Source: Haplodiscus bocki (lineage: Eukaryota). Taken from it: a DNA stretch of 64,000 nt. Location of the stretch: the NCBI GenBank assembly GCA_965655095.1, contig OZ296652.1:4030001-4094000 (forward strand), in the 5' to 3' direction. How positions within the stretch are numbered: position 1 is the first letter of the stretch; every line of letters starts with the position of its first letter. Under the pieces are notes generated by a model. It was not told where the DNA came from, searched no databases, and saw nothing but the letters and a program-made list of their open reading frames with translations. The position numbers were made by a program, and so were the translations under genes. Below are positions 3,836-57,378 of the stretch, in pieces.

Positions 3836-3839
3836 TCAG

Positions 3840-6085: not shown

Positions 6086-6201
6086 AGGTGACAAAGATAG
6101 TATGCTGGTAGCTGAAAGAAGTGGTTTCTTTTTGCGAATGACCGTTTGGGAATGATTTTGGGGCTGCATTTGGTTAGTTGTAAACGCCATTTTTTTAGTC
6201 C

Positions 6202-10470: not shown

Positions 10471-10586
10471 AGGTGACAAAGATAGTATGCTGGTAGCTGA
10501 AAGAAGTGGTTTCTTTTTGCGAATGACCGTTTGGGAATGATTTTGGGGCTGCATTTGGTTAGTTGTAAACGCCATTTTTTTAGTCC

Positions 10587-11198: not shown

Positions 11199-11979
11199 AC
11201 AACGCGAACCAGTAGATAGGTTTTTGCAGACTCAATTGGACACGTTAGAATGAATACACCCGTTTTAAAAGTGATAAAAATTATAGATTGTTTTTTAGAT
11301 GGTCATGGTGTTTATACTAGTAAATAGGTAACTTTTAAATTGAAAACCTAAGCTAACCTTTTCCACAATCTCACAGAGTTCTCCAAGGTTAATTGGTACT
11401 GCAATAGATTTAACCATCACAGCTAACATCAGAACACAAAAAGATAACTAACAAGTAAACAAATTCCACCATTTAACAGAGAAACAGAAAGTGAACACTT
11501 TTTTTTCTTTTTTTTAAATTAGGCGTTTTCAGGCTAAAACATGGCAAACCAGCTTCCAATCGAAGTTTCAAATAAGAGTTTCACACCGCGTTAAATTTTG
11601 AATTAAAAACTTTACCACGTCGTAAATTTTGAATTGGCAAAAAACAAGGCGTTTGACTTTGAAAAAAAATTGTTTTCGTCTTGTCAGTTTTCGAAAATTT
11701 CGCTTTTTGAGATGAAAGTTTAATTTTATTAGAGTTTGAACAAAATTTACGGCTGAAGAGTACGCTTGAACTCATTTTATTTTGTAAAAACGACAGAGTT
11801 TCCATTCTTCATGAGTTTTTGAAAAACATGATTTTGATGGAAAACTTTCCGAAAAAGAGAAGAGTTTAAAAGAAATTTTTCAAAAAAATCGTTTTTTGAA
11901 CAAGCTTTTTTCTTTCAAAAAATACAAATACAACGTGTTAGATCTCAAATTAAACTTTTTAAAACTTGTAATGGTTTGA

Positions 11980-13400: not shown

Positions 13401-13446
13401 GTCACACTTCAACAAGGATGAAAAATTTGTCGTTCAAAAAAAGTTC

Positions 13447-16400
13447 AGCGCACTTGACACCTGGAATTGCACTGAGGACACTCAAAATCAATTGCTCCGG
13501 GAGATTGAAAGTCTTTTTGTGCTCTCAAAACTTCTGAGGACAATTTTCGTTTGCACTGTACACAATCCCAAATAGTTCAAAATTGTTTTTTTTTGTCATA
13601 CTGATAATCAGGTTTGAATGTGCTACATATTGTAGTTGCTCACAATTTTTTCAAAGCTGCTTGCAACTTAAAATTGAGTATTGTACAGGTGGTGAATTTT
13701 GCGATGGTTAGTTTTGAAAAACTCTGTAAGTGTAAATTGATTAACTTGTAGTTCAATATTTTTGACGGTGATGAAACGAGATTTTTCGTTTTGAGAATGG
13801 AACGCAAAATGAATGAATCTTTTTGGATGCCCAATGATATCTTATAGTAATGAGTTTAGAAGTTGTCTTTTGACTTTGTAGATCAAAGTCTATTTTTAGA
13901 TTTGTGTTACATGTTGAAAAATTACCGAGTAACTCTTGCTACATATTGTCAGCCATTTTTCCTTTTGCATTGGTGGAGTCAATTTGCTACAAACTTAACG
14001 TTACTTTCAGAATAATATCTTTTGCTCCTATGACTCAATTGCCTTCAGTCAATTGCAACGAGAAAACTACGTGTGAGATATGTGGTTTCCGAACAACAAC
14101 GCGAAATTTTGCTGGTCACAAGAAGTGGACATAGACACATTTCGTCTTCAACAAAACCTTACAGGACAATAGAAAACTCTAATAAAATTTCAAATTGATT
14201 TTTGTGTGTCTCCAAATACGAGAATCCACGGGCCACTCAACCAGAAAAACCAATTTGTTTATTCTTCCCAGGCAATATTGCGCTCCTGAAACGTATACGC
14301 GCTTTGAGCAAACTGATAGTTGCTTTTGCCAAGAAGTTGAAGGAAATTTTCTGGGCGCAGAAACTCAGAGAACACATATTGTTAGGAAAGTAACACTTTT
14401 CCAAAAAATTTTAAAATGCTATGTTCTTGCCAATAATCACGCTTGATTGTGCTACAGGTCATAATTACTTTCAAATTTTTTAAATATGTTTGCAACGTGA
14501 TATCGGTTCTGGTAGAAGTGGTGAATTCAGCGGTGGTTTTTGTTGACGACTTCTGTAAGTTCGAATTGATTAGCGAGTAGCTAAATTTTTTTCGAAGAAA
14601 AATTCCCAAGTTTTGTTGTTTTCGAAACGAGAAGCTGAAGGAAATTTTTTATCTGAATGTTCAATGATAACTTTATGGTAATGAGTAAAGAGGTCGCCTT
14701 TCGACTTGGTGGATCCAATCCTAAATTTGAGTTTTTGTAATTGGACCTGTAAACACTAGCTTGCCTTATCAAACAATTCGAAAATATCCCTCAAAACTAT
14801 CTCATAAAAGTCTCTAATTGATTGTTATGTCTCTCCAAATACAAAATCTTTTCGCCAATCAACCAGAAAAACGAATTTGGTATTTCTTCCCAGTGAATGT
14901 TGCGCACCTGACACGTGGAGTTTTCATGAGGACACTAATAACCAATTCTTTTAGGAGATTGAAAGCCTTTTTGTGCTTGCGAACTTTCTCAAGACACATC
15001 TCGTTTGCACATTACACGATCCCAATTAGTTCAAAAAAGTTTTTTTTGTTAAACTGACATTCAGATTTGAATGTGCTTTATATCACAGTTGCTCACAATT
15101 TTTACATACCTGCTTGCAACTTAACATTGATTCTTGTGGAGGTGGTGAAATTCGCGATGGTGTTTTCTGAAAAACTCTGTAAGTGTAAATTGATTAACTT
15201 GTAGTTCAATATTTTTGACGGTGATGAAACGAGATTTTTTTGTTTTGAGAATGGAACGAAAAAATGAATGAATCTATTTGGATGCCTAATGATATCTTAT
15301 AGTAATGAGCTTAGAAGTTGTCTTTTGACTTTGTAGATCAAAGTCTATTTTTAGATTTGTGTTACATGTTGAAAAATTACCGGGTAACTCTCGCTACATA
15401 TTCTTAGCCATTTTTCCTCTTGCATTGGTGGAGTCAACTTGCTACAAACTTGACGTTACTTTCAGAATAACCTTTTGTGCTCCTATCACTCAATTGCCTT
15501 CAGTCAATTGCAACGAGAAAATTACGTGTGAGAAATATGGCTTCCGAACTACGACAAGAAATCTTGCTGGTCACAAGAAGTGGACATAGACATATTTTGT
15601 CTTCAACAACAAGACAATAGAAAACTCTATTAAAATTTCTAATTGATTTTTGTTTGTGTCCAAATACGAGAATACATGGGTCACTCAACAAGAGGAACCA
15701 GTTTGTTTTTTCATCCCAGGTATTATTGCGCACCTGACACGTATACGCGCTTTGAGCAAACTGATAGTTGCTTTTGCCACGAAGTTGAAAGAATTTTTCT
15801 GCGCGCAGAAACTCAGAGAACACATTTTGTTTGGAAAAGAACACTTTTCCAAGAAATTTAAAGATGCTCTGCTCATGCCAATGCTCACGCTTGAATGTGC
15901 TACACGTCATAAGTACTATCAAACCTTTCACATGTGTTTGCAACAAGATATCGGTTCAGGTAGAAGTGGTGAGTTCAGCGATGGTTTCTGTTGATGACTT
16001 CTGTAAATTCGAACTGATTACCGAGTAGCTCAATCTTTTGGAAGAAAAAGTCCAATGATTTGTTGTTTTCAAAACGAGAAGCTGAAGGAAATTTTTTATC
16101 TGAATGTTCGTTGATAACTTTATAGTAATGAGTAAAGAGGTCGCCTTTCGACTTGGTGGATCCAATCCTAAATTTGAGATTTTGTAAATGGACCTGTAAA
16201 CACTAGCTTGCCTTATCAAACAATTTGCAAATATCCCTCAAACCTATCCCATAAAAGTCTCCAATTGATTGTTATGTCTCTCCAAATACAAAATCTTTTC
16301 GCCAATCAACCAGAAAAACGAATTTGGTATTTATTCCCAGTGAAAATTGCGCACCTGACACGTGGGGTTTTCTTGAGGACACTAATAACCAATTCTTTTA

Positions 16401-19400
16401 AGAGATTGAAAGCCTTTTTGTGCTTGCGAACTTTCTCAAGACACATCTCGTTTCCACACTACACGATCCCAATTAGTTCAAAATTGTTTTTTTTGTCATA
16501 ATGACATTCAGATTTGAATGTGTTTTATATCGCAGTTGCTCACAATTTTTACATACCTGCTTGCAACTTAACATTGATTCTTGTGGAGGTGGTGAAAATC
16601 GCGATGGTGTTTTCTGAAAAACTCTGTAAGTGTAAATTGATTAACTTGTAGTTCAATATTTTTGACGGTGATGAAACGAGATTTTTCGTTTTGAGAATGG
16701 AACGCAAAATGAATGAATCTTTTTGGATGCCCAATGATATCTTATAGTAATGAGTTTAGAAGTTGTCTTTTGACTTTGTAGATCAAAGTCTATTTTTAGA
16801 TTTGTGTTACATGTTGAAAAATTACCGAGTAACTCTTGCTACATATTGTCAGCCATTTTTCCTTTTGCATTGGTGGAGTCAATTTGCTACAAACTTAACG
16901 TTACTTTCAGAATAATATTTTTTGCTCCTATGACTCAATTGCCTTCAGTCAATTGCAACGAGAAAACTACGTGTGAGATATGTGGTTTCCGAACAACAAC
17001 GCGAAATTTTGCTGGTCACAAGAAGTGGACATAGACACATTTCGTCTTCAACAAAACCTTACAGGACAATAGAAAACTCTAATAAAATTTCAAATTGATT
17101 TTTGTGTGTCTCCAAATACGAGAATCCACGGGCCACTCAACCAGAAAAACCAATTTGTTTATTCTTCCCAGGGAATATTGCGCTCCTGAAACGTATACGT
17201 GCTTTGAGCAAACTGATAGTTGCTTTTGCCAAGAAGTTGAAGGAAATTTTCTGGGCGCAGAAACTCAGAGAACACATATTGTTAGGAAAGTAACACTTTT
17301 CCAAAAAATTTTAAAATGCTATGTTCTTGCCAATAATCACGCTTGATTGTGCTACAGGTCATAATTACTTTCAAATTTTTTAAATATGTTTGCAACGTGA
17401 TATCGGTTCTGGTAGAAGTGGTGAATTCAGCGGTGGTTTTTGTTGACGACTTCTGTAAGTTCGAATTGATTAGCGAGTAGCTAAATTTTTTTCGAAGAAA
17501 AATTCCCAAGTTTTGTTGTTTTCGAAACGAGAAGCTGAAGGAAATTTTTTATCTGAATGTTCGTTGATAACTTTATAGTAATGAGTAAAGAGGTCGCCTT
17601 TCGACTTGGTGGATCCAATCCTAAATTTGAGTTTTTGTAATTGGACCTGTAAACACTAGCTTGCTTTATCAAACAATTTGAAAATATCCCTCAAACCTAT
17701 CCCATAAAAGTCACCAACTGATTGTTATGTCTCTCCAAATACAAAATCTTTTCGCCAATCAACCAGAAAAACGAATTTGGTATTTATTCCCAGTGAAAAT
17801 TGCGCACCTGACACGTGGGGTTTTCTTGAGGACACTAATAACCAATTCTTTTAGGAGATTGAAATCCTTTTTGTGCTTGAGAATTTTCTCAAGACACATC
17901 TCGTTTCCACACTACACGATCCCAATTAGTTCAAAATTGTTTTTTTGTCATACTGACATTCAGATTTGAATGTGTTTTATATCGCAGTTGCTCACAATTT
18001 TTACATACCTGCTTGCAACTTAACATTGATTCTTGTGGAGGTGGTGAAATTCGCGATGGTGTTTTCTGAAAAACTCTGTAAGTGTAAATTGATTAACTTG
18101 TAGTTCAATATTTTTGACGGTGATGAAACGAGATTTTTTGTTTTGAGAATGGAACTAAAAAATGAATGAATCTATTTGGATGCCCAATGATTTCTTATAG
18201 TAATGACTTTAGAAGTTGTCTTTTGACTTTGTAGATCAAAGTCTATTTTTAGACTTGTGTTACATGTTGAAAAATTACCGAGTAACTCTTGCTACGTTTT
18301 CTCAGCCATTTTTCCTTTTGCATTGGTGGAGTCAATTTGCTACAAATTTAACGTTACTTACAGAGTAATATTTTTTGCTCCTATGACTCAATTGTCTTCA
18401 GTCAATTGCAACGAGAAAACTACGTGTGAGATATGTGGTTTCCGAACAACAACGTGAAATTTTGCTGGTCACAAGAAGTGGACATAGACACATTTTGTCT
18501 TCAACAGCAGGACAAAAGAAAACTCTAATAAAATTTCTAATTGATTTTTGTTTTTGTCCAAATACGAGAATACATGGGTCACTTAACAAGAAGAACCAGT
18601 TTGTTTTTTCATCCCAGGGATTATTGCGCACCTGACACGTATACGCGCTTTGAGCAAACTGATAGTTGCTTTTACCACGAAGTTGAAAGACTTTTTCAGC
18701 GCGCAGAAACTCAGAGAACACATTTTGTTGGAAAAATAACACATTTCCAGAAATTTAAAAATGCTATGCTCTTGCCGATAATCACGCTGCAAATTGCTAC
18801 ACGTCATAAGTACTATCAAATCTTTCACATATGTTCGCAACGTCATATCGGTTCTGGTAGAAGTGGTATATTCAGCGATGGTTTTTGTTGATGACTTCTG
18901 TAAGCTCGAACTGATTAGCGAGTAGCTCAATATTGTTGAAGAAAAAATCCCAAGATTTGTTGTTTTCAAAACGCAAAGTTGGAGGACTTTGTTTACTTGA
19001 ATGTTCAATGATAACTTTATAGTAGTGAGTAAAGTGTTCGTCTTTTGATTTGGTGGATCCAATCCTAAACTTGAGTTTTTGTAAAGCACCTGTAAACATT
19101 AGCTTGCCTCATCAAAAATTTTGAAAACATCCCCCAAAATTATCCCATAAAAGTCTCCAACTGATTGTTGTGTCTCTTCAAAAACAAAATCTTTTCGCCA
19201 ATCAACAAAAAGAACGAATTTGTTATTTCTTCCCAGTGAAAATTGCGCACTTGACACGTGGAGTTGCCGTGAAGACACTAATAACCATTTCCTTTTGGGA
19301 GATTGAAAGTCTTTTTGTGCTTGCGAATTTTTTCAAGACACATCTCCTTTGCACATTACACGATCCCAATTAGTTCAAAATAGTTTTTTTTGTTATACTG

Positions 19401-21368
19401 ACATTCAGATTTGAATGTGCTTTATATCACAGTTGCTCACAATTTTTACATACCTGCTTGCAACTTAACATTGATTCTTGTGGAGGTGGTGAAATTCGCG
19501 ATGGTGTTTTCTGAAAAACTCTGTAAGTGTAAATTGATTAACTTGTAGTTCAATATTTTTGACGGTGATGAAACGAGATTTTTCGTTTTGAGAATGGAAC
19601 GCAAAATGAATGAATCTTTTTGGATGCCCAATGATATCTTATAGTAATGAGTTTAGAAGTTGTCTTTTGACTTTGTAGATCAAAGTCTATTTTTAGATTT
19701 GTGTTACATGTTGAAAAATTACCGAGTAACTCTTGCTACATATTGTCAGCCATTTTTCCTTTTGCATTGGTGGAGTCAATTTGCTACAAACTTAACGTTA
19801 CTTTCAGAGTAATATTTTTTGCTCCTATGACTCAATTGTCTTCAGTCAATTGCAACGAGAAAACTACCTGTGAGATATGTGGTTTCCGAACAGCAACGCG
19901 AAATTTTGCTGGTCACAAGAAGTGGACATAGACACATTTTGTCTTCAACAGCAGGATAAAAGAAAACTCTAATAAAATTTCTAATTGATTTTTGTTTTTG
20001 TCCAAATACGAGAATACATGGGTCACTTAACAAGAAGAACCAGTTTGATTTTTCATCCCAGGGATTAATGCGCACCTGACACGTATACGCGCTTTGAGCA
20101 AACTGATAGTTGCTTTTACCACGAAGTTGAAAGAATTTTTCTGCGCGCAGAAACTCAGAGAACACATTTTGTTCGGAAAAGAACACTTTTCCAAGAAAAT
20201 TAAATATGCTATGCTCATGCCAATGCTCACGCTTGAATGTGCTACACGTCATAAATACTATCAAACCTTTCACATGTGTTTGCAACAAGATATCGGTTCA
20301 GGTAGAAGTGGTGAGTTCAGCGATGGTTTCTGTTGATGACTTCTGTAAATTCGAACTGATTACCGAGTAGCTCAATCTTTTGGAAGAAAAAGTCCAATGA
20401 TTTGTTGTTTTCAAAACGAGAAGCTGAAGGAAATTTTTTATCTGAATGTTCAATGATAACTTTATGGTAATGAGTAAAGAGGTCGCCTTTCGACTTGGTG
20501 GATCCAATCCTAAATTTGAGTTTTTGTAATTGGACCTGTAAACACTAGCTTGCCTTATCAAACAATTTGAAAATATCCCTCAAAACTATCCCATAAAAGT
20601 CTCCAATTGATTGTTATGTCTCTCCAAATACAAAATCTTTTCGCCAATCAACCAGAAAAACGAATTTGGTTTTTATTCGCAGTGAACATTGCGCACCTGA
20701 CACGTGGAGTTTTCTTGAGGACAATAATAACCAATTCTTTCAGGAGATTGAAAGCCTTTTTGGGCTTGCGAACTTTCTCAAGACACATCTCGTTTCCACA
20801 TTACACGATCCCAATTAGTTCAAAATAGTTTTTTTTGTTATACTGACATTCAGATTTGAATGTGCTTTTTATCACAGTTGCTCACAATTTTTACATACCT
20901 GCTTGCAACTTAACATTGATTCTTGTGGAGGTGGTGAAATTCGCGATGGTGTTTTCTGAAAAACTCTGTAAGTGTAAATTGATTAATTTGTAGTTCAATA
21001 TTTTTGACGGTGATGAAACGAGATTTTTTGTTTTGAGAATGGAACGAAAAAGTGAATGAATCTATTTGGATGCCCAATGATTTCTTATAGTAATGACATT
21101 AGAAGTTGTCTTTTGACTTTGTAGATGAAAGTCTATTTTTAGATTTGTGTTACATGTTGAGAATTTACCGGGTAACTCTCGCTACATATTCTTAGCCATT
21201 TTTCCTTTTGCGTTGGTGGAGTCAATTTGCTACAAACTTAACGCTACTCTCAGAATAGTAGTTTTTGCTCCTATCACTCAATTGCCTTCAGTCAATTGCA
21301 ACGAGAAATTTACGTGTGAGTTATGTGGTTTCCGAACAACAACGCGAATTTTTGCTGGTCACAAGAAC
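13447..21368. repeat. Array block 1: five ~1.45-kb units (A + A' + B with ~1.04 kb deleted) plus a partial unit
   Basis: Junction spacings of 1455, 1445, 1453, 1444 and 1446. Each unit carries the deletion joint TTAGATTTGTG|TTACATGTTGA or a close variant. Confidence 0.95.
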
Positions 21369-24300
21369 TGGACAGAGACACATTTCGTCGTCAACAAAAC
21401 CTTACAGGACAATAGAAAACTCTAATAAAATTTCGAATTGATTTTTGTGTGTCTCCAAATACGAGAATCCGTGGGTCACTTAACAAAAAAAAGCAAATTG
21501 TTTATTCATCCCAGGGATTATTGCCCATCTGACACGTATACGCGCTTTGAGCAAACTGATAGTTGCTTTTGCCAAGAAGTTGAAAGACTTTTTCAGCGCG
21601 CAGAAACTCAGAGAACACATTTTGTTGGAAAAATAACACATTTCCAGAAATTTAAAAATGCTATGCTCTTGCCGATAATCACGCTCCAAATTGCTACACG
21701 TCATAAGTACTATCAAATCTTTCACATATGTTCGCAACGTCATATCGGTTCTGGTAGAAGTGGTATATTCAGCGATGGTTTTTGTTGATGACTTCTGTAA
21801 GCTCGAACTGATTAGCGAGTAGCTCAATATTGTTGAAGAAAAAATCCCAAGATTTGTTGTTTTCAAAACGCAAAGTTGGAGGACTTTGTTTACTTGAATG
21901 TTCAATGATAACTTTATAGTAGTGAGTAAAGAGGTCGTCTTTTGATTTGGTGGATCCAATCCTAAACTTGAGTTTTTGTTATAGCACCTGTAAACATTAG
22001 CTTGCCTTATCAAAAATTTTGAAAACATCCCTCAAAATTATCCCATAAAAGTCTCCAACTGATTGTTGTGTCTCTTCAAAAACAAAATCTTTTCGCCAAT
22101 CAACAAAAAGAACGAATTTGTTATTTCTTCCCAGTGAAAATTGCGCACTTGACACGTGGAGTTGCCGTGAAGACACTAATAACCATTCCCTTTTGGGAGA
22201 TTGAAAGTCTTTTTGTGCTTGCGAATTTTCTCAAGACACATCTCCTTTGCACATTACACGATCCCAATGAGTTCAAAAAAGTTTTTTTGTCATACTGACA
22301 TTCAGGTTTGAATGTGCTACATATCGTTGTTGCTCACCATTTTTTCATACCTGCTTGCAACTTAACATTGATTCTTGTAGAGGTGGTGATTTTCGCGATG
22401 GCTGTTTTTGAAGAACTCTGTAAGTGTAAATTGATTAACTTGTAGTTCAATTTTTCTGACGGTAAAGAAGCGAGATTTTTTGTTTTGAGAATGGAACGAC
22501 AAGTGAATGAATCTAATTGGAAGCTCAATTATCTCTTTATAGTAATGAGTTTAGAAGTTGTCTTTTGATTTTGTATATCGAATTCTATTTTTAGATTTGT
22601 GTAATAGAACCTGTAAAAACATGCTTGTTTCATCAAGAAAAAGAATATATCCCGCAAACTCTCAAAGAAACAATTGAGATATTTTTTGGAAAAACTCACT
22701 TCCTCTTGGAGGATTTAACGCGGCTCTGTCTTCAAATCGGCAGACTGGAAAACCTTGATTGCAAGAATCTTTTGGTCGGAGCTTCTGCTAACACGTTTTG
22801 TTCGATGCTGGGACTGCGAAATGTCGAAATTGATGTGGTAAAGTTAACTATTTCGGTTTGTTTCGTCCGAAAGCTCCGTTGGAATTTAATCGCAAAATGA
22901 ACTTAGTTTGGAAAAATTGAGAAAACTGCTTTTTGACAGACATCAATTAATTTTGGTCGGGAAACTTCGCAAAATTAATTCTCAGGTGGAGTAGCGGTAA
23001 ACGCGATGCAAATTGGTTAAGGGTTTCAATTTTCAGCGATGGCAACACTGGCAACGGCTTTAATGCGTTTGGTTGGACTTATTTACGCCTTTTTGGATAA
23101 AATAATTTGAAACTGTAGTTCAGTGGTTAGAAAGCTCAGATCACGTGATGTATTTGTTGGTGAGTACTGTCATGCAGGTCGTCGTAACAAAACTTTTAAC
23201 TCCCATACCACAATGGCTGTGCAAAGATCATTTTTTTCTTTCATCTTATGGATGTGTTCTGATTGAAAGTTGAGATGAAACTAAGAACATAAAGAAACTT
23301 AACTTTCTCAGTCAAGTTGTCTCATTGTCTAGGGATTGCGTTTCACTTGAATTATTTTCCAGAGAAACTTTCGCTTTATCGGGCGAATTCGTGCGACTCG
23401 ATTCAAATTATCAAACACACTGTCTGGGATAGTTAATTCACGAGATTCCTTTTTTCCGACCAACTGTCACCATTCAGAGGAAACTCGTTCCACTTGAATT
23501 GGTTTTACAGAAAGAGTTTTTTATCCAAAGAATTAGTATCTCAATTGTGTGTAGTTGGTTTTAAGATGAAAGAGAATAAAAGACAAGTCCTTTTATGGTT
23601 GGTCCTTCCTCTAGCGTTCGTGATTCCCTTTACGATCTTTTCGTACATGTTGAAAATTTACCGAAGAACTCTTGCTACATATTCTCAGCTATTTTTCATT
23701 TTGCATCGGTGGAGTCAATTTGCTACAAACTTAACGTTACCTTCAGAATAATATTTTTTGCTCCAATCACTCAATTGCCTTCAGTCAATTGCAACGAGAA
23801 AGTTACGTGTGAGAAATGTGGTTTCCGAACTACAAAACGTAATCTTGCTGGTCACGAGAAGTGGACATAGACACATTTTGTCTTCAACAACAGGACAATA
23901 GAAAACTTTAATAAAATTTCGAATTGATTTTTGTTTGTCTCCAAATACGAGAAGCCATGGGTAACTTAACAAGAAAAAAAATTTGTTTATTCATCCCAGG
24001 GCTTATTGCGCACTTGACACGTATACGAGCTTTGAGCAAACTGATAGTTGCTTCTGCCAAGAAGTTGAAAGAATTTTTCTGCGCGCAGAAACTCAGAGAA
24101 CACATTTTGTTCGGAAAATAACACTTTTCCAGAAAATTTAAATATGCTATGCTCATGCCAATGCTCACGCTTGAATGTGCTACACATCATAAGTACTCTC
24201 AAATCTTTCACAACTCTTTGGAACGTGACGTCGGCTCTGGTAGAGGTGGTGAATTTAAAGGTGAATATGTTTCACTATTTCTGTAAAATCGAACTGATTA

Positions 24301-39300: not shown

Positions 39301-39399
39301 CCCTCCACTCAATTGCTTTTGTCCAATGGCTACGAGAATTTTACGTGCAAGAAGTGTAGTTTCCAAACTACAACTCGAAAACTTGCTCGTCACAGGAAG
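21369..39399. repeat. Array block 2: six ~2.49-kb units (A + A' + B) and one 3.11-kb unit (A + A' + A'' + B at 33,806-36,914)
   Basis: Spacings of 2493, 2484, 2485, 2484, 2491, 3109 and 2485. The ~620-bp module beginning ...GATTTTTGTGTGTCTCCAAATAC occurs twice per unit, and three times in the 3.11-kb unit. Confidence 0.93.
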
Positions 39400-42300: not shown

Positions 42301-45300
42301 ATTCAACTTTCAGCGTTGACAACACTGGTACCGAATTTAATGCGAATGTTCGGACTTAGTTATGTCTTTTCGGATAATTAAACTTGAAACTGTGGTTTGG
42401 TGGCTAGAAAGCCCAGATCACGTGATGTATTTGTTGGTGAGTACTGTCATGCATGTCGTCGTACCAATGCTTTTAACTCCCATACCACAATGGCTGTGCA
42501 AAGATCATTTTTTCTTTCAATTTATGGAAGTCTTCTGAATGCTAGTTGAGATGAAACTAAAGAAGATAAAGAAACGTAACTTTCTCAGAAAAGTTGTCTT
42601 TTTGTCCGGGGAATTCGTTTCACTTGGGTTTATTCTCCAGAGAAACTGTCGCTTTATCGGGAGAACTCGTTCGGTTTGATTCAATTTATCAAACACGCTG
42701 TCTGGTATAGTTAATTCACGTGATTCCTTTGGTCCAACCATCTGTCACCTTTCAGAGTGAACTCGTTCCACTTGAATTGGTTTTACAGAAAGGCTTTTTC
42801 ATCCAAAGAATTAGTGTTTCAAATGTATATAGTAGGTTTTGGGATGAAAACAATTAATTGACTTGTCCCCTTTTAGTTGGTTGTTTCACCGGCGACTCGT
42901 AATTTCCTTCATGGTCTGTTCTTTATAAATTAAAATATTACGAAGTAACTCTTGCTATAAACCTCGCTGTTTTTCCTTTTGCCTTGCTGCAGTCAATTAG
43001 CTACAAAATTGCCGTTTCTCTCAGAATATTCTTTTTTGCCCCTACCACTCAATTGCTTTTGCCCAATCGCTATGAGAATAATATGTGTAAAAAATGTGGT
43101 TTCCAAACTACAACGCGAAAACTTGCTCGTCACAGGAAGTGGACATAGACCCAATTTGTCTTCAACAAAATCTTCCACGACAATTGAAATCTCTAATAAA
43201 ATCTCGAATTGTTTTTTATGTGCTCCAAATACGAAAATCCTTGGGTCTATCAACAACGAAAACTAATTTGCTTACTCTTCCCAGGGAATATTGCGCACCT
43301 GAAACGTATACGTGCTTTGAGCAAACTGATAGTTGCTTCTGTCGAGAAGTTGAAAGACCTTTTCTGCGCCCAAAATTTCAGAGAACACATTTTGTTCGGA
43401 CGGTGAACGTTTCCAAAAACAGTTGAAAAGGCTATGCTCTTGCCGATAATCACGCTGCATTGTGCTACACGTCATAGGTGCTATCAAATCTCTCACATAT
43501 GTTTGCCACGTGATATCGGTTCTGGTAGAAGTTTTGAATTCAGCGATGGTTTTTGTTGACGACTTCTGTAAGTTTGAATTGATTAGCATGTAGCTCATTT
43601 TCTGATGGAAAAATCCCAAGAGTTGTTGTTTCCAAAACGTAATGTTCAAGAAATTGTTTGCTTGAATGTTCAATGATATTTTTATAGTAATGAGTAAAGA
43701 TGTTATCTTTTGACTTCATAGATCCAATCCGATTTTTGGGTTACAGCAATGGAACCTGTAAACACTTGCTTGCTTCATCAATATATTTGCAATTATCACG
43801 CAAAATCTTGATGAAGAAACTGAGATTCTTTCTGGAAACACTCAATGACCCTTGGAGAAGAAAGCGCTGCTGTGTCTTCAAATTTCACAATAGGAAAAAG
43901 TTGACTGCTTGAAACTTTTCGTTGGAACGTTTGCTAACACAATTTATTCGATACTGGGACTGCAAAATGTCAAAAATGTTGTGGCAAAAGTAACTATCTA
44001 CGTTACTTTCGTCCGTAAACTCCGCTGGTCTTTCCTCGTAAAAAGAATGTAGCTTGGAAAAACTGACACATTTTCATTTTGACAGACATCAACTACTTTT
44101 AGTAATTAAAATTTAGAAAATTTTTGTGAGGTGGAGTAGCGGTGAAAGCGATGCAGATTGGTTGGGGATTTCAACTTTCAGCGTTGACAACACTGGTACC
44201 GAATTTAATGCGAATGTTCGGACTTAGTTATGTCTTTTCGGATAATTAAATTTGAAACTGTGGTTTAGTGGCTAGAAAGCCCAGATCACGTGATGTGTTT
44301 GTTGGTGAGTACTGTCACGCATGTCGTCGTACCAATACTTTTAACTCCCATACCACAATGGCTGTGCAAAGATCATTTTTTTTCTTTCATTTTATGGAAG
44401 TCTTCTGATTGCTAGTTGAGATGAAACTAAAGAAGATAAAGAAACGTAACTTTCTCAGACAAGTTGTCTTTTTGTCCGGGGAATTCGTTTCACTTGGGTT
44501 TATTCTCCAGAGAAACTGTCGCTTTATCGGGGGAATTCGTTCGACTTGATTCGAATTATCAAACACACTGTCTTTGATAGTTAATTCACGTGATTCCTTC
44601 TTTCCGACCATCTGTCACCTTTCAGAGGGAACTCGTTCCACTTGAATTGGTTTTACGGAAAGGCTTTTTTATCCAAAGAATTAGTGTTTCAAGTGTATAT
44701 AGTTGGTTTTAGGATGAAAACAATTAATTGACATGTCCTCTTTTAGTTGGTTTTTTCTCCGGCGACTCGTAATTTCCTCCATGGTCTGTTCTTTATAAAT
44801 TAAAAAAATTACGAAGTAACTCTTGCTATAAACCTCGCTGTTTTTCTTTTTGCCTTGCTGCAGTCAAATAGCTACAAAATTACCGTTTCTTTCAGAATAT
44901 TCTTTTTTGCCCCTACCACTCAATTGCCTTTGCCCAATCGCTACGAGAAGAAAATGTGTGAAAAATGTGGTTTTCAAACTACAACGCGAAAACTTGGTCG
45001 TCACAGGAAGTGGACATAGACCCAATTTGTCTTCAACAAAATCTTCCACGACAATTGAAAGCTCTAATAAAAGCTCGAATTGTTTTTTATGTGCACCAAA
45101 TACGAAAATCCTTGGGTCTATCAACAACGAAAACTAATTTGCTTACTCTTCCCAGGGAATATTGCGCACCTGACGCGTGTATGTGCTTTGAGCAATCTGA
45201 TAGTTGCTTCTGTCGAGAAGTTGAAAGACCTTTCCTGTTCGCAAATTTTCGGAGAACACATTTTGTTTGGACGGCGAACGTTTCCAAAAGGAGTTATAAA

Positions 45301-48300
45301 TGCTATGCTCTTCCCGATAATCACGCTCCAATGTGATACACGTCATAAGTGATATCAAATCTTTCACATATGTTTGCAACGTGATATCGGTTCTGGTAGA
45401 AGTGGTGAATTCAGCGATGGTTTTTGTTGACAATTTCTGTAAGTTTGAATTGATTAGCATGTAGCTCTTTTTTTTTGATGGAAAAACCCCAAGTTTTGTT
45501 GTTTCCAAAACGTAATGTTCAAGGAATTTGTTTGTTTGAATGTTCAATGATATTTTTTTAGTAATGTTTAAAGAGTTTGTCTTTTGACTTTAAAGATCCA
45601 CTCCTATTTTTGGGTTAAAGCAATGGAACCTGTAAACACTTGCTTGCTTCATCAATATATTTGCAATTATCACGCAAAATCTTGATGAAGAAACTGAGAT
45701 TCTTTCTGGAAACACTCAATGACCCTTGGAGAAGAAAGCGCTGCTGTGTCTTCAAATTTCACAATAGGAAAAACTTGACTGCTTGAAACTTTTCGTTGGA
45801 ACGTTTGCTAACACAATTTATTCGATACTGGGACTGCAAAATGTCAAAAATGTTGTGGCAAAAGTAACTATCTACGTTACTTTCGTCCGTAAACTCCGCT
45901 GGTCTTTCCTCGTAAAATGAATGTAGCTTGGAAAAGCTGAAACATTTTCATTTTGACAGCTATCAACTACTTTTAGTAATTAAAATTTGCAAAAATATTT
46001 CTGAGGTGGCGTAGCGGTCAAAACGATGCAGATTGGTGAAGGAATTCAATTTTCAACAAATAGAACACTGGTACTGAGTTTAATGCGATTGGTCTGACTT
46101 AGTGTCGCTTTTTGGATAAATTATTTTGAAACTGTGGTTTACTGGTTAGAAAGCTCAGATCACGTGATGTATTTGCTCGTGAGTACTGTCATGCATGTCG
46201 TCGTACCAAGACTTTTAGCGCCTATATCACAATGGCTGTGCAAAGATCATTTTTTTCATTTTTTGGAAGTGTTTTAATTGACAGTTGAGATGAAGCTAAA
46301 GAACATAAACAAACTTAACTTTCTCAGTCAAGTTGTCTCCTTGTCAGGGGATTTCGTTTCACTTGAATTTATTCTCCATAGAAAATGTCGCTTTATCGGG
46401 GGAATTCGTTCGGCTTGACTCAATTTGTCGGACACGCTGACTGGGATAGATGATTCACGTGATTCCTTTTTTCAGACCGTCTGTCACCATTCAAAGGGAT
46501 TTCGTTCCACTTGAATTGGTTTTACAGAGAGTTTTTTTATCCAAAAAAATTGTTTTTCAATTGTTTATAGTTGGTTTAAAAAAAACTAATTGACTAGTCC
46601 TCCTATAAACGGTCTTTTCTCTAGCAATCCGTAATTTCTTTCATGGTCTTTTCTTTATAAACTAATAAAATTACGAAGTGACTCTTGCTATATATCTCGC
46701 TGTTTTTTCTTTTGCCCTGCTGCAGTTAGTTTGCTAAAAAAATTACCGTTTCTTTCAGATTTTGCTTTTTTGCTCCTACCACTCAATTGCCTTTGCCCAA
46801 TCGCTACGAGAATAATATGTGTGAAAATGTGGTTTCCAAACTACAACGCGAAAACTTGCTCGTCACAGGAAGTGGACATAGACTCTTTTGTCTCTAACAA
46901 AACCTTCCAGGATAGTAGAAATCTCTATTAAAATCTCGAATTGGTTTTTCTGTCTCCCCAAAGACGGAAGTCTTTAGGTGACTCAACAATGAAATTGAAA
47001 TTGTTTACTTTTCCCAGGGAAATTTGCGCGGCTGACACGTATACGTGCTTTGAGCAAACTGATAGTTGCTTGTGCCGACAAGTTGAAAGACCTTTAATGC
47101 GCGCAAAACATCAGAAAACACATTTTGTTAGGACAGTGAACGTTCCCAGAAATTTTAAACGTGCTATACTCTAGCCGATAATCACCCTTGAATGTGCTAC
47201 ACGTCATTAGTATTCTCAAATCATTCACATATAATTGCAACGTGATATCAGATCTGGTAGAAGTGGAGAATTAAGCAAAGAATATAGTTGGCGAGTTCCC
47301 TAAGTTCGAACTGATTGACATGTAGCTCATTTTTTGATGAAAAAATCCCAAATTTTGTTGTTTCCAAATTGAAAAGTTTGAGCAATTTGTTTATCTGAAA
47401 TTTCAATGATATCTCTATTGTAATGAGTAAAGAGATTGTCTTTTGACTTTACAGATCCAATCCTAATTTTGGTTTGAGGCAATGGAACCTGTAAACACTT
47501 GCTTGCTTCATCAATGTATTAGATGTTACCCCGCAGAATAACAATAAAATAACTGAGATCTTTTCTGGAAAGACTCATTGAGTCTTGGAAGACAAAACGC
47601 TGCTGTGTTTTCAAATTGCAAGATGAGAGAAACTAGATTGCTTGAAATTTTGTGTTGGCATCTTCACTAACACATATGATTCGACGCAGGGACTGCAAAA
47701 TGTCGAAAAGGATGTGGTAAAATTAACTGTCTACGTTACTTTTGTCCGTAAACTCCGCTGGTCTTGCATCGTAAAATGAATTTAGCTTAGAAAAACTGAG
47801 AAAAATTCAATTTGACAGACCTCAACTACTTATAGTCCTAAAAAATTGACAACTTAATTGCGATGTGGAGTAGCGGTGAAAGCGATGCAGATTGGTTAAA
47901 GAATTCAATTTTCAGCGATGACAAAACTGGTGCCCAACCTAATGCGATTGGTCAGACTTAGTTACGTCTTTTAGGAAAACTAAATTTGAAACTGTGGTTT
48001 AGTGGCTAGAAAGCCCAGATCACGTGATGTGTTTGTTGGTGAGTACTGTCACGCATGTCGTCGTACCAATACTTTTAACTCCCATACCACAATGGCTGTG
48101 CAAAGATCATTTTTTTTCTTTCATTTAATGGAAGTCTTCTGATTGCTAGTTGAGATGAAACTAAAGAAGATAAAGAAACGTAACTTTCTCAGACAAGTTG
48201 TCTTTTTGTCCGGGGAATTCGTTTCACTTGGGTTTATTCTCCAGAGAAACTGTCGCTTTATCGGGGGAATTCGTTCGGCTTGATTCGAATTATCAAACAC

Positions 48301-51300
48301 ACTGTCTTTGATAGTTAATTCACGTGATTCCTTCTTTCCGACCATCTGTCACCTTTCAGAGGGAACTCGTTCCACTTGAATTGGTTTTACGGAAAGGCTT
48401 TTTTATCCAAAAAATTAGTGTTTCAAGTGTATATAGTTGGTTTTAGGATGAAAACAATTAATTGACATGTCCCCTTTTAGTTGGTTTTTTCTCCGGCGAC
48501 TCGTAATTTCCTCCATGGTCTGTTCTTTATAAATTAAAAAAATTACGAAGTAACTCTTGCTATAAACCTCGCTGTTTTTCCTTTTGCCTTGCTGCAGTCA
48601 ATTTGCTACGAAATTAACGTTCTTTCAGAATATTCTGTTTTGCTCCTACCACTCAATTGGCTTGGCCCAATCGGAACGAGAATATTACGTGTGAAACATG
48701 TGTTTTCTAAGCTTCAAGGCGAAAATTTGCTCGTCACAGAAAGTGGACATAGGTACATTTTGTCTTCAACAAAATCTTCCAGGCCAAAAGAAACCTCTAT
48801 TGAAATTTTGAATTGGTTTTTGTGTCTCTCCAAATACGAAACTCTTTGGGCCACACAACAAGGAAAACGATTTTGTTTACTCTACCCCGGGATAATTGCG
48901 CACCTGAAACCTATGTGTGCTTTGAGCAAACTGATAGTTGCTTCTGCCGAAAAGTTGAAAGATCTTTTCTTTGCGGAAAACTTGAGAAAACACACTTTGT
49001 TCAAACAGAGAATTTTTCCAAAATTTTTAAAAAAGCTATACTCTAGCCGATAATTACGCTTGAATGTGCTACACGTCACAAGTACTCCAACTTCTTTCAC
49101 AAATGTTTCCAACGTGACATCAGTTCAGGTAGAAGTGGTGAATTGAGTGATGCATATGGTTGACGATGAACGTAAATTCGACGTGATTAGCTTGTAGCTC
49201 ATTTCTTTGATGGAAAAATCCCATGAGTTGTCGTTTCCAAAACAAAATTTTCAAGGAATTTGTTTGTTTGAATGTTCAATGATATCTATGTAGTAATAAG
49301 TAAAGAGGTTGTCTTTTGACTTTATAGATCCAGTCCTAATTTTGGGTTAAGTCAATGGAACCTGTAAACATTTGCTGGCATCATCATTATTTTTGGTTTT
49401 ATCCCACAATATGTTGATAAACGAACTGAGATCTGTTCCGGAAACACTCATTGACTCTTGGAGGATAAGGCCCCGCTGTGTACTCAAATCGCAAGATGGG
49501 AAAAACTTGATTGCAGGAAACTTTTTTGGAACCTTTGCTAACACCTATTCGTTGATGCTGGGACTGCAAAATTTCGAATTTTTGTGGTAAGCTTAACTAT
49601 CTACGTTACTTTTGTCCGTAAGATCCTCTGGTATTTCATCGTAAAATGAATTTAGCTTGGAACAACTGAGAAATTTTCATTTTGACAGACATCATTAACT
49701 TCTAGTCCTCAAAATTTGCAAATTTAATTGCGAGGTGGATTAGCGTTGTAAGCGATGCAGATTGGTTAGGGAATTCAATTTTCAGCGATCACAACACTGG
49801 TACTGAACTTAATGCGATTGGTCGGACTTATTGACATCTTTTCGGATAATTAAATTTGAAACTGTGGTTTAATGGTTAGCAAACTCAGATCACGTGAGGT
49901 CTTTGTTGGCGAGTACTGTCATGCATGTCGTCGTACCAATACTTCTAGCTCCCATACCAAAATGGCTGTGCAAAGATCATTTTTTCTTTCATTTTACGGA
50001 AGTGTTCCAATTGACAGTTGAGATGAAACTAAAGAAGATGAAGAAACCTAACTTTCTCAGACAAGTTGTCTCATTGTCAGCGGAATTCGTGCCAATTGAT
50101 ATTATTCTCCAGACAAACTGTCGCTTTATCGGGGGAAATCGTTCGGCTTGATTCAATTTATCAGACACGCTGTCTGGGATAGTTAGTTCGTGTGATTCCT
50201 TTTTTCAGACCGCCTGTCACCATTCATTGGAAAATTGTTCCACTTGATTTGGTTTTACAGAAAGGCTTCTTCATCCAAGTAATTGGTATTCTATTTGTAT
50301 ATAGTTGGTTTTAAGATGAAGATGTTATTTGACAAGTCCTTTTGTAGTTGGTTTTTTCTCTGGCGGTTCGTAAAATCTTTCATGGTTTTTCGTTACAAGA
50401 TAAAAAAAATACGAAGTAGCTTTTGCTATAAATCTCGTTATTTATGCTTTTGCATTGCTGCAGTCAATTTGCTACGAAAATAACATTCTTTCAGAATATT
50501 CTGTTTTGCTCCTACCACTCAATTGGCTTGGTCCAATCGGATCGAGAAAATTACGTGTGAAACATGTGTTTTCCAAACATCAAAGCAAAAATTTGCTCGT
50601 CACAGGAAGTGGACATAGACACATTTTGTCTTCAACAAAACCTTCCAGTCCAAAAGAACCTTTTATTAAAAGCTCGAATTGGTTTTTTTGTCTCTCCAAA
50701 TACGAAACTTTTTGGGCCACACAACAAGGAAAACGTTTTTGTTTACTCCAACCAGGGGTAATTGCGCACCTGACACCTATATGTGCTTTGAGCAAACTGA
50801 TAGTTGCTTCTGCCGAAAAGTTGAAAGATCTTTTCTTTGCCCAAAACTTGAGAAAACACACTTTGTTCGAACAGAGAAATTTTCCAGAATTTTTAAATAA
50901 GCTTTACTCTAGCCGATAATTACGCTTGAATGTGCTACACGTCATAAGTACTCTCAAATCTTTCACATATGTTTGCAACGTGATATCAGTTCAGGCAGAA
51001 CTGGTGAATTGAGTGACGAAAATGGTTGACGATGTCTGTAAATTCGAACTGACTAGCATGTAGCTCATTCCTTTAACTGAAAAGTCCAAAGATTTGTTCC
51101 CTTTCCAAACAAAAAAATTAAAGAAATTGTTTGTTTGAATGTTCAATGATATCTATGTAGTAATAAGTAAAGAGGTTGTCTTTTGACTTTATAGATCCAG
51201 TCCTAATTTTGGGTTAAAGCAATGGAACCTGTATACACTTGCTTCCTTCATCAATATATATGATATTATCCGGCAAAGAAATGATAGGTAAACTGAGATC

Positions 51301-54300
51301 TCTTCTGGAAAGATTCGCTGACTCTTGGAGGATAAAACGCTGCTGTGTCTTCAAACCGCAAGATGAGAAAAACTTGATTGCAAGAATTTTTTTGTTGGAA
51401 CCTTTGATAACACGTTTTATGCGATGCTGGGACTGCAGAATGTGGAAAATGTTGTGGTAAAAAAAACTATCTACGTTACTTTCGTCCGTAAACTCCTTTG
51501 GTATTTCATCGTAAAATGAATGTCGCTTGGAAAAACTGACACATCTTCTTTTTGACAGACATCAACTATTTTTAGTCATTAAATTCTGCAAACTTTTTTG
51601 TGAGGTGGAGTAGCGGTGAAAGCGATGCAGATTGGTTGAAGATTTCAGCTTTCACCGTTGACAACACTGGTACCGGAATTATTGCGATTGTTCGGACTTA
51701 GTTATGTCTTTTCGGATGATTAAATTTGAAACTGTGCTTTAGTGGCTAGAGAGCTCAGATCACGTGATGTATTTGTTGGTGAGTACTGTCATGCATGTCG
51801 TCGTACCAAGATTTTCAGCTCCCATATCACAATGGCTGTGCGAAGATTTTTTTTCATTTTTTGGAAGTGTTCTGATTGACATTTGAGATGAAACTGAAGA
51901 ACATAAAGAAACTTAACTTTCTCAGACAAGTTGTCTTTTTGTCAGGGGAATTCGTTTCACTTGAGTTTTTTCTCCAGAGAAACTGTCGCTTTATCGGGGG
52001 AATTCGTTCGGCTTCATTCAATTAATCGGACACGCTGTCTCGGAGAGATAATTCACGTGATTCCTTTTTTCAAACCGTCTGTCACCATTCAAAGCGACTT
52101 TGTTCAACTTGAATTGGTTTTACAGAGAGGCTTTTTTATCCAAAAGTTTAGTACTTCAATTGTGTCTAGTTGGTTTGAAGACGAAAAAGTTAATTGACAA
52201 GTCCTCTTTTAGTTGGTCTTTTCTCTGGTGGCTCGTAATTTATTTCATGGTCTTTTCTTTATAAGTAAACAAAAGTTACGAAGTAACTCCTGCTGTAAAT
52301 CTCGTCGTTTTCTCTTTTGCCTTACTGCAGTCAATTTGCTAAAAAATTACCGTTTCTTTCAGAATGTTCTTTTTTGCTCCTACCACTCAATTGCCTTGGC
52401 CCATTCGCAATAAGAATCTTACGCCTGAAAAATGTGGTTTCCAAACTACAACGCGAAACTTGCTAATCACAAGAAGTGGACATACACACATTTTGTCTTC
52501 CACAAAAAACTTCCAGGACAGGGGAAACCTCTTTTAATATCTGGAATTGGTTTTTGTGTCGCTCCAAATACGAAAGTCTTTGGGGCACTTAACAACAAAA
52601 ACGAGTTTGTTTACTGTTCACGGGGAACATTGCGCACCTGACACGTATACGTGCTCTGAGCAAACTGACAGTTGTTTCTGCCGAGAATTTGAAAGACCTT
52701 CTCTGTGCGCATGATTTCAAGGAACACATTTTGTTCGGACAATGAACCTTTCCAAAAATTTTATAATTGCTATGATTTTGCCGATAATCGCGCTTGAATG
52801 TGCTACATGTCATAAGTGCTCTCAAATTTTTCACATATGTTTGCATCTTGATATCGGTTCTGGTAGAAGTGGTGAATGCAGCGATGGTTTTGCTTGACAA
52901 TTTCTGTAAGCTTGAATTGATTAGCATGTATCTCATATTTTTCATGGGAAAGTCCCAAGATTTGTTGTTTCCGAAACGAAAAGTTTGAGGAATTTGTTTC
53001 TTTGAATGTTGAATGATATCTATTGAATAATAAGGAAAGATGTTTTTCTTTGATTTTATAGATCCAAACGAGAGTTTGGGTTGCAGCAAAGGATCTTGTA
53101 AGCACTTGCTTCTTTCATCAATATATTTCATATTATCCGGCAAAATATCAACACAATAACAGATCTCGTCTGGAAAGTCTCACTGGCTCTTGGAGGATAA
53201 AAAGCAGTTGTGTCTTCAAACCGCAAGATGAGAAAAATTTGATTGCAGGAAATTTTTTGTTGCAACTTTTGCTAACACATATTGTTCGATGCTGGGACTG
53301 CAGAATGTGGAAAATATTGTGGTAAAATTAACTATCTACTATACTTTCGTCCGTAAACTCCTTTGCTATTTCATCGTAAAATGATATTAGGTTGGAAAAA
53401 CTGAGAAATCTTCATTTTGACAGACATCAACTACTTTTAGTCATTAGAATTTGCAACTTTATTTGTGAGTTGCATCAGCGTTGAAAGCGATGTAGATTGG
53501 TTAAGGAATTGAAATTTCAGCGTTGACAACACTGGTATCGAATCTAATGCGATTGGTCGGACTTAGTTATGTCTTTTCGGATAATTAAGTTTGAAACTGT
53601 GGTCTAGTGGTTAGAAAGCTCAGATCACGTGATGTAATTGTTGGTTAGTACTGTCATGCATGTCGTCGTACGAATACTTTTATTTCCCATACCACAATGG
53701 CTGTGCAAAGACCATTTTTTTCTTTCATTTTACGGAAGTCTTCTGATTGTTAGTTGATTGCCAGTTGAGGTGAATCTAAAGAAGTTAAAGAGAATCAACT
53801 TCTTCAGACAAGTTGTCTCCTCGTCGGAGGAATTCGTTTCAATTGAGTATTATCTCCAGACAACCTGTCGGATTATCGAGGGATTTCTTTCTGCCTGATT
53901 CATTTTATCAGAGACGCTGTATTGGTTTGTTAATCCAGTTGATTCCTTTTAATAGACCGTCTGCTACCATGGAAGGTGAACTTGTTCCACTTGAATTGCC
54001 TTGACAGAAAAGATGTTTTTCCTTTTAAATTTTTTTTTAAAACGTATATAGTCGGTATTTAAGATCAAAGAATTCAATTGACAAATCCTCTTATGGTTGG
54101 TGTTTCCTCTAGTTGTTCGTGATTCCTTTTATGGTCTTTCCTTTTATGTTGAAAAAATTAACAAGTAACTCTTGCTACATAAACTTGCCATTTTTGTTTC
54201 TGTATTGCTGCAGTCAAACTGCTACAAAATTAACGTTCCATTCAGATCTTTCAGTTTTGCTCCTGTCAATCAATTGTTTTCGCTCAATCGGAACCAGAAA

Positions 54301-54360
54301 GCTACGTGTGAAAATTGTGGTGTCCAAACTACAAAGCGTAATCTTGCTCGCCATAAGAAG
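39400..54360. repeat. Array block 3: eight ~1.87-kb units (A + B), the presumed ancestral unit
   Basis: Spacings of 1869, 1871, 1871, 1862, 1871, 1866, 1867 and 1884, with a single A module per unit. Confidence 0.95.
52480..54010 (-). pseudogene. Two uncharacterised minus-strand Polinton ORF remnants forming the body of each array unit (representative copy)
   Basis: Recurrent translations across units: a long ORF (...DVCQKxxFSxFP...KGSNKKFPAIKFFPSCDL..QQRFILQE...SKCLQVPLP..GSTKSK..FTHYY) followed by a small Cys-containing ORF (MTCSTFKRDYR.EHSIF...CQVRN...DP.ILVF...VEDK.CLCP). I found no intact copy in any unit. Confidence 0.6.
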
Positions 54361-57300: not shown

Positions 57301-57378
57301 AAGAAAGGACTCTCCTACTTCTACCCCAAACAAAATGTAGAGAACGATGGAATTCAGACTCATTCTCTCAAATTGTGT
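54274..57378 (+). pseudogene. Polinton pPolB (element 2), degenerate, with a large internal deletion
   Basis: N-terminal Zn-finger-like CENCGVQTTKRNLARHKK; OTU-like LNLCLFRAVA...NHICY; Exo I AVFDFES; degenerate motif A GIIASHL*PYSVC; motif B LKCLANSSHGHQ; C-terminal YEQVKKGLSYFYPK..VENDGIQT. Confidence 0.9.
55978..56021. repeat. Compound microsatellite (CT)n, TT-interrupted, followed by (CA)n
   Basis: TCTCTCTCTCTTTCTCTCTCTTTCTCTCTCTCTCACACACACAC, inside the polB pseudogene. Confidence 0.95.

Follow-up and report, generated by a model that had tools for sequence, protein, structure and literature searches.

The window, i.e., the whole 64,000-nucleotide stretch of Haplodiscus bocki DNA that was analyzed, contains an array of repeats inside one decayed Polinton, W, whose arms are collinear with dispersed elements on both sides of the array (Table 1). 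The amplified part is the segment of W directly upstream of polB. As expected of a Polinton/Maverick, W is collinear with ~18-kb copies that are bounded by terminal inverted repeats and carry a protein-primed family B polymerase (PF03175, found at E 2e-6 in L012, a collinear relative) and a retroviral-like integrase (rve, E 1.2e-10 in L021 and E 6e-4 in L022). Unlike an intact element, W is decayed and without a left end, and the array, together with an internal 4.39-kb duplication in its left arm, has inflated it to ~56 kb. Terminal inverted repeats are present in the dispersed relatives, while W has a right-end remnant only and starts, without a left terminal repeat, directly after the terminal-repeat remnant of a neighboring Polinton, N. 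The latter extends to the left beyond the window, and its modules X and X' are located there (~L015:4822-6064; G000:C5:4024822-4026064). No Pfam match to a packaging ATPase, capsid proteins, or a protease is found in the 19 sequences scanned, the profile set holding no Polinton-specific profiles, and a LINE is the sole match in a Pfam scan of 25 ORFs of the window.

Table 1. Features of the locus (window positions; a point marks features without assigned strand)
Feature	Position	Strand	Basis or composition
polB of neighboring Polinton N, 3' part, broken	23..1044	+	tblastn with natural polB ORF, 58% identity, 5 stops; collinearity
Right terminal inverted repeat remnant of N	1873..2029	.	Matches both termini of TIR-bounded element
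Left arm of W	2061..13350	.	Collinear with dispersed ~18-kb elements
Integrase-like gene of W, broken	2,186-2,542	minus	Broken match to L022 ORF
u00	13344..14176	.	833 bp, partial edge unit: flank-attached module, deletion joint, B tail
u01-u05	14177..21419	.	1.45-kb units, n=5: A + deleted A' + B tail; from left to right 1448, 1452, 1446, 1444, 1453 bp
u06-u10	21420..33856	.	2.49-kb units, n=5: A + A' + B; from left to right 2486, 2484, 2485, 2491, 2491 bp
u11	33857..36965	.	3109 bp, sole 3.11-kb unit: A + A' + A'' + B
u12	36966..39449	.	2484 bp, 2.48-kb unit of older type: A + A'' + B
u13-u20	39450..54360	.	1.87-kb units, n=8: A + B; u13-u19 from left to right 1870, 1871, 1871, 1861, 1872, 1866, 1868 bp; u20 continues into polB
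polB of W, broken	54434..57375	+	Stops and frameshifts; tblastn with natural ORFs
Right-end remnant of W	57734..57857	.	Matches terminal region of dispersed elements

The array consists of 21 repeat units and covers ~41 kb (13,344-54,360). The repeat periods computed from the window sequence (~1.87, ~2.49, and ~1.45 kb) and the unit lengths agree with the sizes given in the original prediction, and the modules at 21,420 and 22,039 lie where it had placed them. Its three size classes along the array describe most units, but u11 and u12 had been missed. Within each of the units u13-u20 lie the intergenic region and the initial polB codons, along with a disrupted copy, on the minus strand, of a 208-aa Polinton gene. 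The B-to-A joints have one common junction (20 of 20), and the joints between A and the second module have another (13 of 13). The ~1.04-kb deletion joint proposed to generate the 1.45-kb units is found in all six short units (u00-u05), exact in five and with one substitution in the remaining one; ~58 bp of A' and ~985 bp of B are removed. In u00, the 5' end of the flank-attached module belongs to the X lineage, and its 3' end is identical to deleted A'. The B segments, 15 in total, fall into a single clade (support 100/100). Tandem Repeats Finder, with a period limit of 500, reports nothing relevant in the window. The head-to-tail arrangement of kilobase-size units made wholly of element sequence is that of a transposon-derived macrosatellite, and so is the local homogenization with conversion tracts, as seen in the B clade and in exact common tracts.

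The 208-aa gene is interrupted by stops or frameshifts in every array unit. Differences between units are spread flatly over the codon positions (17.4/17.8/18.9%), without a third-position excess. The gene has no Pfam match under E 0.09; a PC4/Whirly-like product is no more than a lead (Atlas score 0.78; model pLDDT 47.7), the best Foldseek match being to MRP1/2 at E 0.026, with weaker PC4 rows. A second, independent array, which is located inside another Polinton of this genome on contig C12, spans the same gene with other breakpoints, as would be expected if the gene or the polB promoter region were amplified under selection. With the gene interrupted in nine of nine C12 copies and in all copies here, and with the flat codon pattern among units, such selection is very improbable.

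Equally improbable is an assembly artifact as the source of the size classes or of their order. Suspicion might arise from tracts that are identical across 600-970 bp, from a scaffold gap at 62,957-63,156, and from the fact that no read contig spans the whole array. Against this, units differ by up to 30%; all 30 bins are covered by read contigs at ≥97% in three runs, and 29 of the 30 in a fourth. Short-read contigs, which speak to junctions and not to long-range unit order, cross the u11 and u12 junctions gap-free in two samples (u12 by one 2,193-bp contig), the runs possibly coming from the assembly's own sample. Contig depths, which are not copy numbers, differ between the two samples.

The transition from 1.87- to 2.49-kb units had been ascribed to local duplication of a module, which is contradicted by the relationships of A'. 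In u01-u11, A' shares only 61-66% identity with the A beside it in the same unit and is no closer to it than to unrelated dispersed Polintons (65-72%), and a grouping of the left A with all A' modules is rejected (AU test, p 1.9e-140). Identity to X' of the neighboring Polinton N is 84-88%, climbing to 90-96% across ~300 bp inside a ~900-bp patch. In segment trees A' is a chimera, of which the first ~100 bp are array-type and group with A'', while the core groups with the edge module and X'. The starts of the second modules (A', A'', X') form a clade (95/83) within the array clade (100/99), outside of which the starts of u00 and X fall. A further group (100/98) unites the cores of u00, A', and X', the identity of the A' core to the edge module and to the neighboring Polinton being 85-88%. 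The segment downstream of the duplication junction is of array type. The ~900-bp patch with the duplication junction would also have moved, in one direction or the other, between the array and N. W resembles N in its edge module and polB 5' end (78-86% identity at 54.4-55.6 kb) but not in A and B. N being a collapsed array copy is ruled out, its B being 63-66% identical to array B and grouping with L042; a dispersed subfamily with the duplication was looked for and not found, two A modules occurring in none of 40 fetched relatives. Of 1,828 and 3,701 candidates, 40 each were scored, and among these the duplication junction is matched at this locus only.

Within A', the deleted modules group as a clade (99/97 and 100/100), and both deletion parents match u06-u10, which supports the predicted derivation of the 1.45-kb units from 2.49-kb A-A'-B units. 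In their first modules, the 1.45-kb units do not form a clade (p 0.0008). With dispersed Polintons as the root, the B trees place u11, from the middle of the array, at the base (99/95-96) and show the 2.49-kb clade as the sister group of u12 together with the 1.87-kb units, the roots being uncertain because outgroups are only 62-72% identical and modules are mosaic. The B trees omit L062, as well as C12a because its B is cut short, and one set of trees omits the long-branch row L041. A u20-basal B topology is rejected (p 0.008 and 0.02), and AU p-values against the B topologies of the original prediction are moderate (0.002-0.03); the clades nested from right to left which it had anticipated in Polinton-rooted trees are not seen. 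Nesting of the 2.49-kb B segments among the 1.87-kb units (p 0.10) and a clade of left A and A'' (p 0.12) are not rejected, and the left A cores nest with u13-u16 at 60/74. A unit of the 1.87-kb type may have given rise to the A cores and to B in the 2.49-kb block. The oldest-looking modules lie in the middle of the array and at its right end, and the B tail of u20 is 69-73% identical to all other units; a left block younger than the right one is supported.

The same trees raise the possibility that the two-module unit (A-A''-B, 2.49 kb) is ancestral and that the 1.87-kb units are derived from it through the loss of a module. The A'' modules branch as the sister group of the complete set of 20 first modules, which contains all eight from 1.87-kb units (100/97-99), u11 B is basal, the two-module u12 groups with the 1.87-kb B segments, and the 3' end of its A'' is 83-87% identical to u13, u15, u17, and u18. 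This order, a variant of the block-wise reading favored below, has a rather low probability; against it, context-dependent conversion yields the same pattern from a 1.87-kb-first start, the segment downstream of the duplication junction is array-type, and the 40 dispersed relatives are without a second A module.

Left units resemble one another more closely than right units do, as had been claimed, with identities of 88.5% versus 82.0% for A and 97.2% versus 84.2% for B; the 1.45-kb block does not exceed the 2.49-kb block in uniformity (A' 95.1 versus 94.5%). Of the ordered positional record that had been postulated, the whole-array trend stands (Mantel rho 0.49-0.55, p ≤0.0002), but order inside the size blocks does not, none of eight single-size-class Mantel tests being significant (p 0.11-0.80), with little power because each includes only 5-8 units. 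The B tails of u12-u20 also follow position (p 0.0025). The nearest relative is the adjacent unit for eight of 20 first modules and a non-adjacent one for 12, close non-adjacent pairs being u01/u03 (99.1%), u02/u05 (97.0%), u04/u06 (96.6%), u06/u10 (98.4%), and u14/u16 (98.6%). Among exact tracts of at least 120 bp, 40 of 55 link non-adjacent units (pairs are not independent), six span the 1.45/2.49 boundary, and none connects the left half with u12-u20. Conversion tracts skip up to seven units.

These data bear on strict polar growth, according to which units were added away from polB, from 1.87 via 2.49 (local duplication) to 1.45 kb, leaving an ordered record. Block order, the more uniform left side, the whole-array correlation, the confirmed deletion step, and a possible nesting of left A cores with u13-u16 agree with it, and the left edge would have been overwritten recently because the 3' part of u00 is 93-100% identical to deleted A'. 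It is improbable, however, and largely refuted, given that A' is no copy of A, that the B of u11 and not that of u20 is basal, and that the blocks lack internal order and are crossed by long-range conversion. Basal 1.45- or 2.49-kb units, or lack of a relation between position and divergence, had been named beforehand as observations that would speak against polar growth, and they are found in part, in the basal B of the middle unit u11. A softer form, in which a younger left block was seeded by a right-type unit, survives and fits the block-wise reading.

In the most probable scenario (probability about 0.72), the array is a non-coding macrosatellite from an internal segment of one broken Polinton, whose layout likely came about by block-wise unequal exchange and gene conversion and not by steady growth away from polB. 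Block-wise turnover of neutral DNA with a younger left block is the best reading of the locus. The array would have been founded by a non-homologous junction. The 620-bp duplication junction would have arisen early in the array lineage and would remain in the middle A'' units, followed by formation of A' via out-of-register exchange with the edge module or the neighboring element. The A-A'-B unit would then have spread to form the left block, and one copy, shortened by 1.04 kb, would have multiplied in its turn. Within each half, modules would continue to be mixed by patch conversion and by slips of two units (2.9 and 3.74 kb). The whole-array position trend, the trend in the u12-u20 B tails, the non-rejected nesting, and the limitation of the W/N resemblance to the edge module and the polB 5' end are counted against this scenario.

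Tandem arrays evolve in concert through unequal crossing-over in Smith-type models, and local homogenization, divergent end units such as the u20 B tail, and two-unit periodicity are as described there; the mechanism is the same, and what sets this locus apart is its substrate and the fact that exchange extends to an adjacent element. With the known LTR-UTR-derived satellite the array shares its origin wholly from part of a mobile element, an illegitimate founding junction, independent arrays from a similar parent region, variation arising mainly by gene conversion, and recombinant monomers with ends from a related element. It differs in having a Polinton as parent and an internal unit, made of gene, intergenic region, and polB start, and in staying between the arms of the element itself. 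Human centromeric alpha satellite, as outlined in the preprint bioRxiv 10.1101/2021.07.12.452052, has its youngest layer in the center and older, mirror-symmetric flanks on a megabase scale. On that outline, a newly arisen variant whose seed may have come from outside the array expands into a younger block next to older repeats, which is comparable, but the present array has 21 units, no symmetry, and its young block at one side. The likeness to centromeric layered expansion that had been drawn fails for want of mirror symmetry and of order within blocks. The array is thus an ordinary transposon-derived macrosatellite of an already known kind. At listing level, no earlier case of a Polinton-derived kilobase satellite was found in the open-licence literature, and PMC9659126 mentions neither Polinton nor Maverick. 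Satellites adjoining C11 elements have no match to the internal part of the reference element among the matches listed.

The array points to no new mechanism or function, and it is a warning that sizes of tandem units which add up neatly do not necessarily give the order of events. Being short and having individually resolvable modules that diverge by 1-30%, it is a convenient natural record of tract lengths and of the reach of unequal exchange and conversion. With this locus, Polintons join the elements that spawn kilobase satellites. Two independent arrays cover this region in one genome, and one ~900-bp patch is common with the adjacent element. It may be speculated, though at rather long odds, that macrosatellites arise from Polintons again and again, the gene and the divergent intergenic region directly upstream of polB acting as a hotspot; arrays would trade modules with neighboring Polintons, and a foreign module may seed a new block.

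The window (G000:C5:4030001-4094000) comes from a eukaryotic assembly of 1.5 Gb in which Polinton-type polymerases abound (10,958 PF03175 candidates at first look, of which 91 were scored). Many dispersed relatives of the 1.87-kb array unit are found at 68-74% identity, and those fetched are about 18 kb long and carry terminal inverted repeats (TIRs), polB, and an rve integrase. Because both flanks of the array are collinear with the arms of such a Polinton, the array lies inside a single element, W, in which polB and the integrase are broken. W adjoins the right end of N, a second decayed Polinton whose start is left of the window. The cluster consists of a TIR-bounded element in reverse orientation, followed by N and W, both without a left end. 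The left arm of W carries a 4.39-kb tandem duplication, the near-identical stretch of which would stem either from recent conversion or from a merge in the assembly. No EGF Pfam match was found for the small secreted-looking Polinton protein of the left arm.

Coordinates of features in the window and at other loci of the assembly
Feature	Location	Remarks
Left arm of W	window 2,061-13,350	collinear with ~18-kb Polinton
Right arm of W	window 54,569-57,160	collinear with ~18-kb Polinton
Polinton cluster	G000:C5 about 4,004,000-4,032,000 (L038, L029, L015) and window 1-2,029	
Tandem duplication, 4.39 kb	window 2,646-7,032 and 7,034-11,417	95.7% overall; 88-97% on left, near-identical from about 5.1 to 7.0 kb, where 540 and 967 bp match exactly
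Inverted integrase fragments	window 1,068-1,782 and 2,100-2,540	flank N/W boundary; first is 85% identical to stretch about 13 kb left of window
Small secreted-looking protein gene	window 12,027-12,236 (minus); L011:4261-4530	Polinton gene; by eye, cysteines spaced as in EGF; broken in window copy
Stretches of differing contig depth	window 31,543-32,208 and 16,133-16,453	depth vs unique flank higher in second sample than first
W-N patch in polB	window 54.4-55.6 kb	78-86%; W+N 100/100
Fragmented LINE	window 58,694-62,943	right of W; zf-CCHC, endonuclease, RVT_1; ends at gap
Gap, 200 N	window 62,957-63,156	
Second Polinton array	C12 about 2,448,000-2,477,000 (L013, L014, L031)	intact arms on both sides of nine 3.1-kb copies; copies 95-100% alike
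Kilobase satellites	G000:C11 (L008, L034, L035; L006, L036)	periods about 1.05/2.1 kb; directly beside right ends of two Polintons
ORF with CFAP74 domains	L002:5529-9959	uninterrupted, 1,477 codons; adjoins a Polinton; seems to be a host gene with few introns

The three unit sizes of the original prediction are real array structure, as is evident from the three periods visible in self-alignment and from module mapping. The latter yielded 21 units (u00-u20, left to right): an incomplete unit at the edge, five units of 1.45 kb and five of 2.49 kb, then two middle units absent from the prediction, u11 of 3.11 kb (A-A'-A''-B) and u12 of 2.48 kb (A-A''-B), and finally eight of 1.87 kb. In two samples from a single study, read contigs cover the tested stretches and span the junctions of u11 and u12; they may come from the assembly's own source and speak to local junctions, not to long-range unit order. 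Depth differences between the samples hint weakly that the left block varies in copy number. Modules of the left units do resemble one another more than those on the right (A, 88.5 versus 82.0%; B, 97.2 versus 84.2%).

The proposed derivation of 1.45-kb from 2.49-kb units by deletion stands, since the deleted A' modules form a clade within A' (paired supports 99/97 and 100/100); the deletion joint is present in 6/6 short units, and both parent sequences match u06-u10. A clade of the first modules of the 1.45-kb units is rejected (p 0.0008). The other proposed step, from 1.87 to 2.49 kb by local duplication of A, has to be abandoned: in u01-u11, A' is 61-66% identical to A of its own unit, compared with 84-88% to X', the second A-type module of N, whose layout is flank-X-X'-B-polB without an array. 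A clade of left A and A' is rejected (AU test, p 1.9e-140), as is a single clade of all array A-type modules (p 0.0016). The 20 first modules, taken together, have the A'' modules as their sister group.

One duplication junction, located ahead of each module, is common to A', A'', and X'. At positions 20-110, second-module starts cluster (95/83) within the array clade (100/99), and u00 and X, whose starts adjoin the flank, fall outside it; at positions 100-450, A', X', and u00 cluster (100/98) with X as sister. From these segment trees, the junction would have arisen in the array lineage, and A' would be a chimera whose core came from the lineage of the edge module. A patch of about 900 bp (peak 90-96%), which starts at the end of A and reaches about 110 bp into B, is common to N and u06/u08, and a second W-N patch is located in polB. 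A and B of W lean to subfamily L072, while the edge module and the polB start lean to another. The array is a clear case of module exchange between W and its neighbour N, with either direction possible.

In its strict form, the predicted one-way growth from polB is not borne out. In the B tree, u11 is basal, and u12 groups with u13-u20 in a clade to which u06-u10 are sister; a B clade of u06-u12 (p 0.002, 0.02, 0.03) and a basal u20 (p 0.008, 0.02) are rejected. Divergence does track position when the array is taken as a whole (rho 0.49-0.55), owing to the difference between its left and right halves. Within single size classes, 0/8 tests reach significance, each with 5-8 units and so of low power; of the four class-spanning sets, three do (p 0.004, 0.045, 0.0025), the exception having p 0.16. 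For 8/20 first modules, the closest relative lies in an adjacent unit. Exact tracts of at least 120 bp (55 in total) join adjacent units in 15 cases and non-adjacent ones in 40; six cross the 1.45/2.49 boundary, and u00-u11 have none in common with u12-u20. Offsets by two units, of 2.9 and 3.74 kb, are seen repeatedly. Non-adjacent tracts and two-unit offsets are the outcome expected from unequal exchange with conversion patches, and the array pattern would be what such exchange gives, not a stack of dated layers. Counting against such reshuffling, B of u06-u10 nested with u13, 14, 15, and 17 is compatible with the data (p 0.10), left A cores group with u13-u16 (60/74), and a clade of left A and A'' is likewise compatible (p 0.12). 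The left block may therefore have descended from a right-type unit, though not via duplication of its own A.

B plus A contain a minus-strand 208-aa Polinton gene, the beginning of the CxxC-rich gene that follows it, the intergenic region, and the opening codons of polB. The 208-aa protein belongs to a large family (1,234 matches; 702 representatives), and a PC4/Whirly-like fold is predicted as a weak lead. All array copies of its gene have stops or frameshifts, with near-full-length matches at 41-55% identity; dispersed copies are mostly at 75-90%, and 5/40 are unbroken. Among units, the three codon positions differ to an equal extent (17.4/17.8/18.9% in u13-u20, 26.0/24.8/26.4% in six distant units), in contrast to 8.4/7.6/12.0% in dispersed copies. 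Divergence of the array has been neutral.

A Polinton on contig C12 carries a second, independent array with different breakpoints, which covers the same gene; its units c5 and c7 are 99.9% alike, a two-unit offset there, too. This locus was chosen for clustered matches and is a biased sample, arrays being present in 1/9 loci of the first batch and 0/40 of the second, where local direct duplications of at least 300 bp occur in 6/40. The C11 satellites do not match Polinton internal sequence among the matches listed.

At the level of titles and abstract beginnings, no description of a Polinton-derived satellite, macrosatellite, or tandem-duplication array was found among the open-licence papers listed. 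The layered model permits outside seeding of a layer and predicts older layers mirrored on either side of the youngest one (10.1101/2021.07.12.452052); the array lacks this symmetry. CRM1TR/CRM4TR of maize match the array in almost all features, among them recombinant monomers that derive in part from a related element (PMC3648361). The array belongs to a known kind, the transposon-derived macrosatellites; its Polinton parent is unusual, and it has exchanged modules with a neighbouring element.
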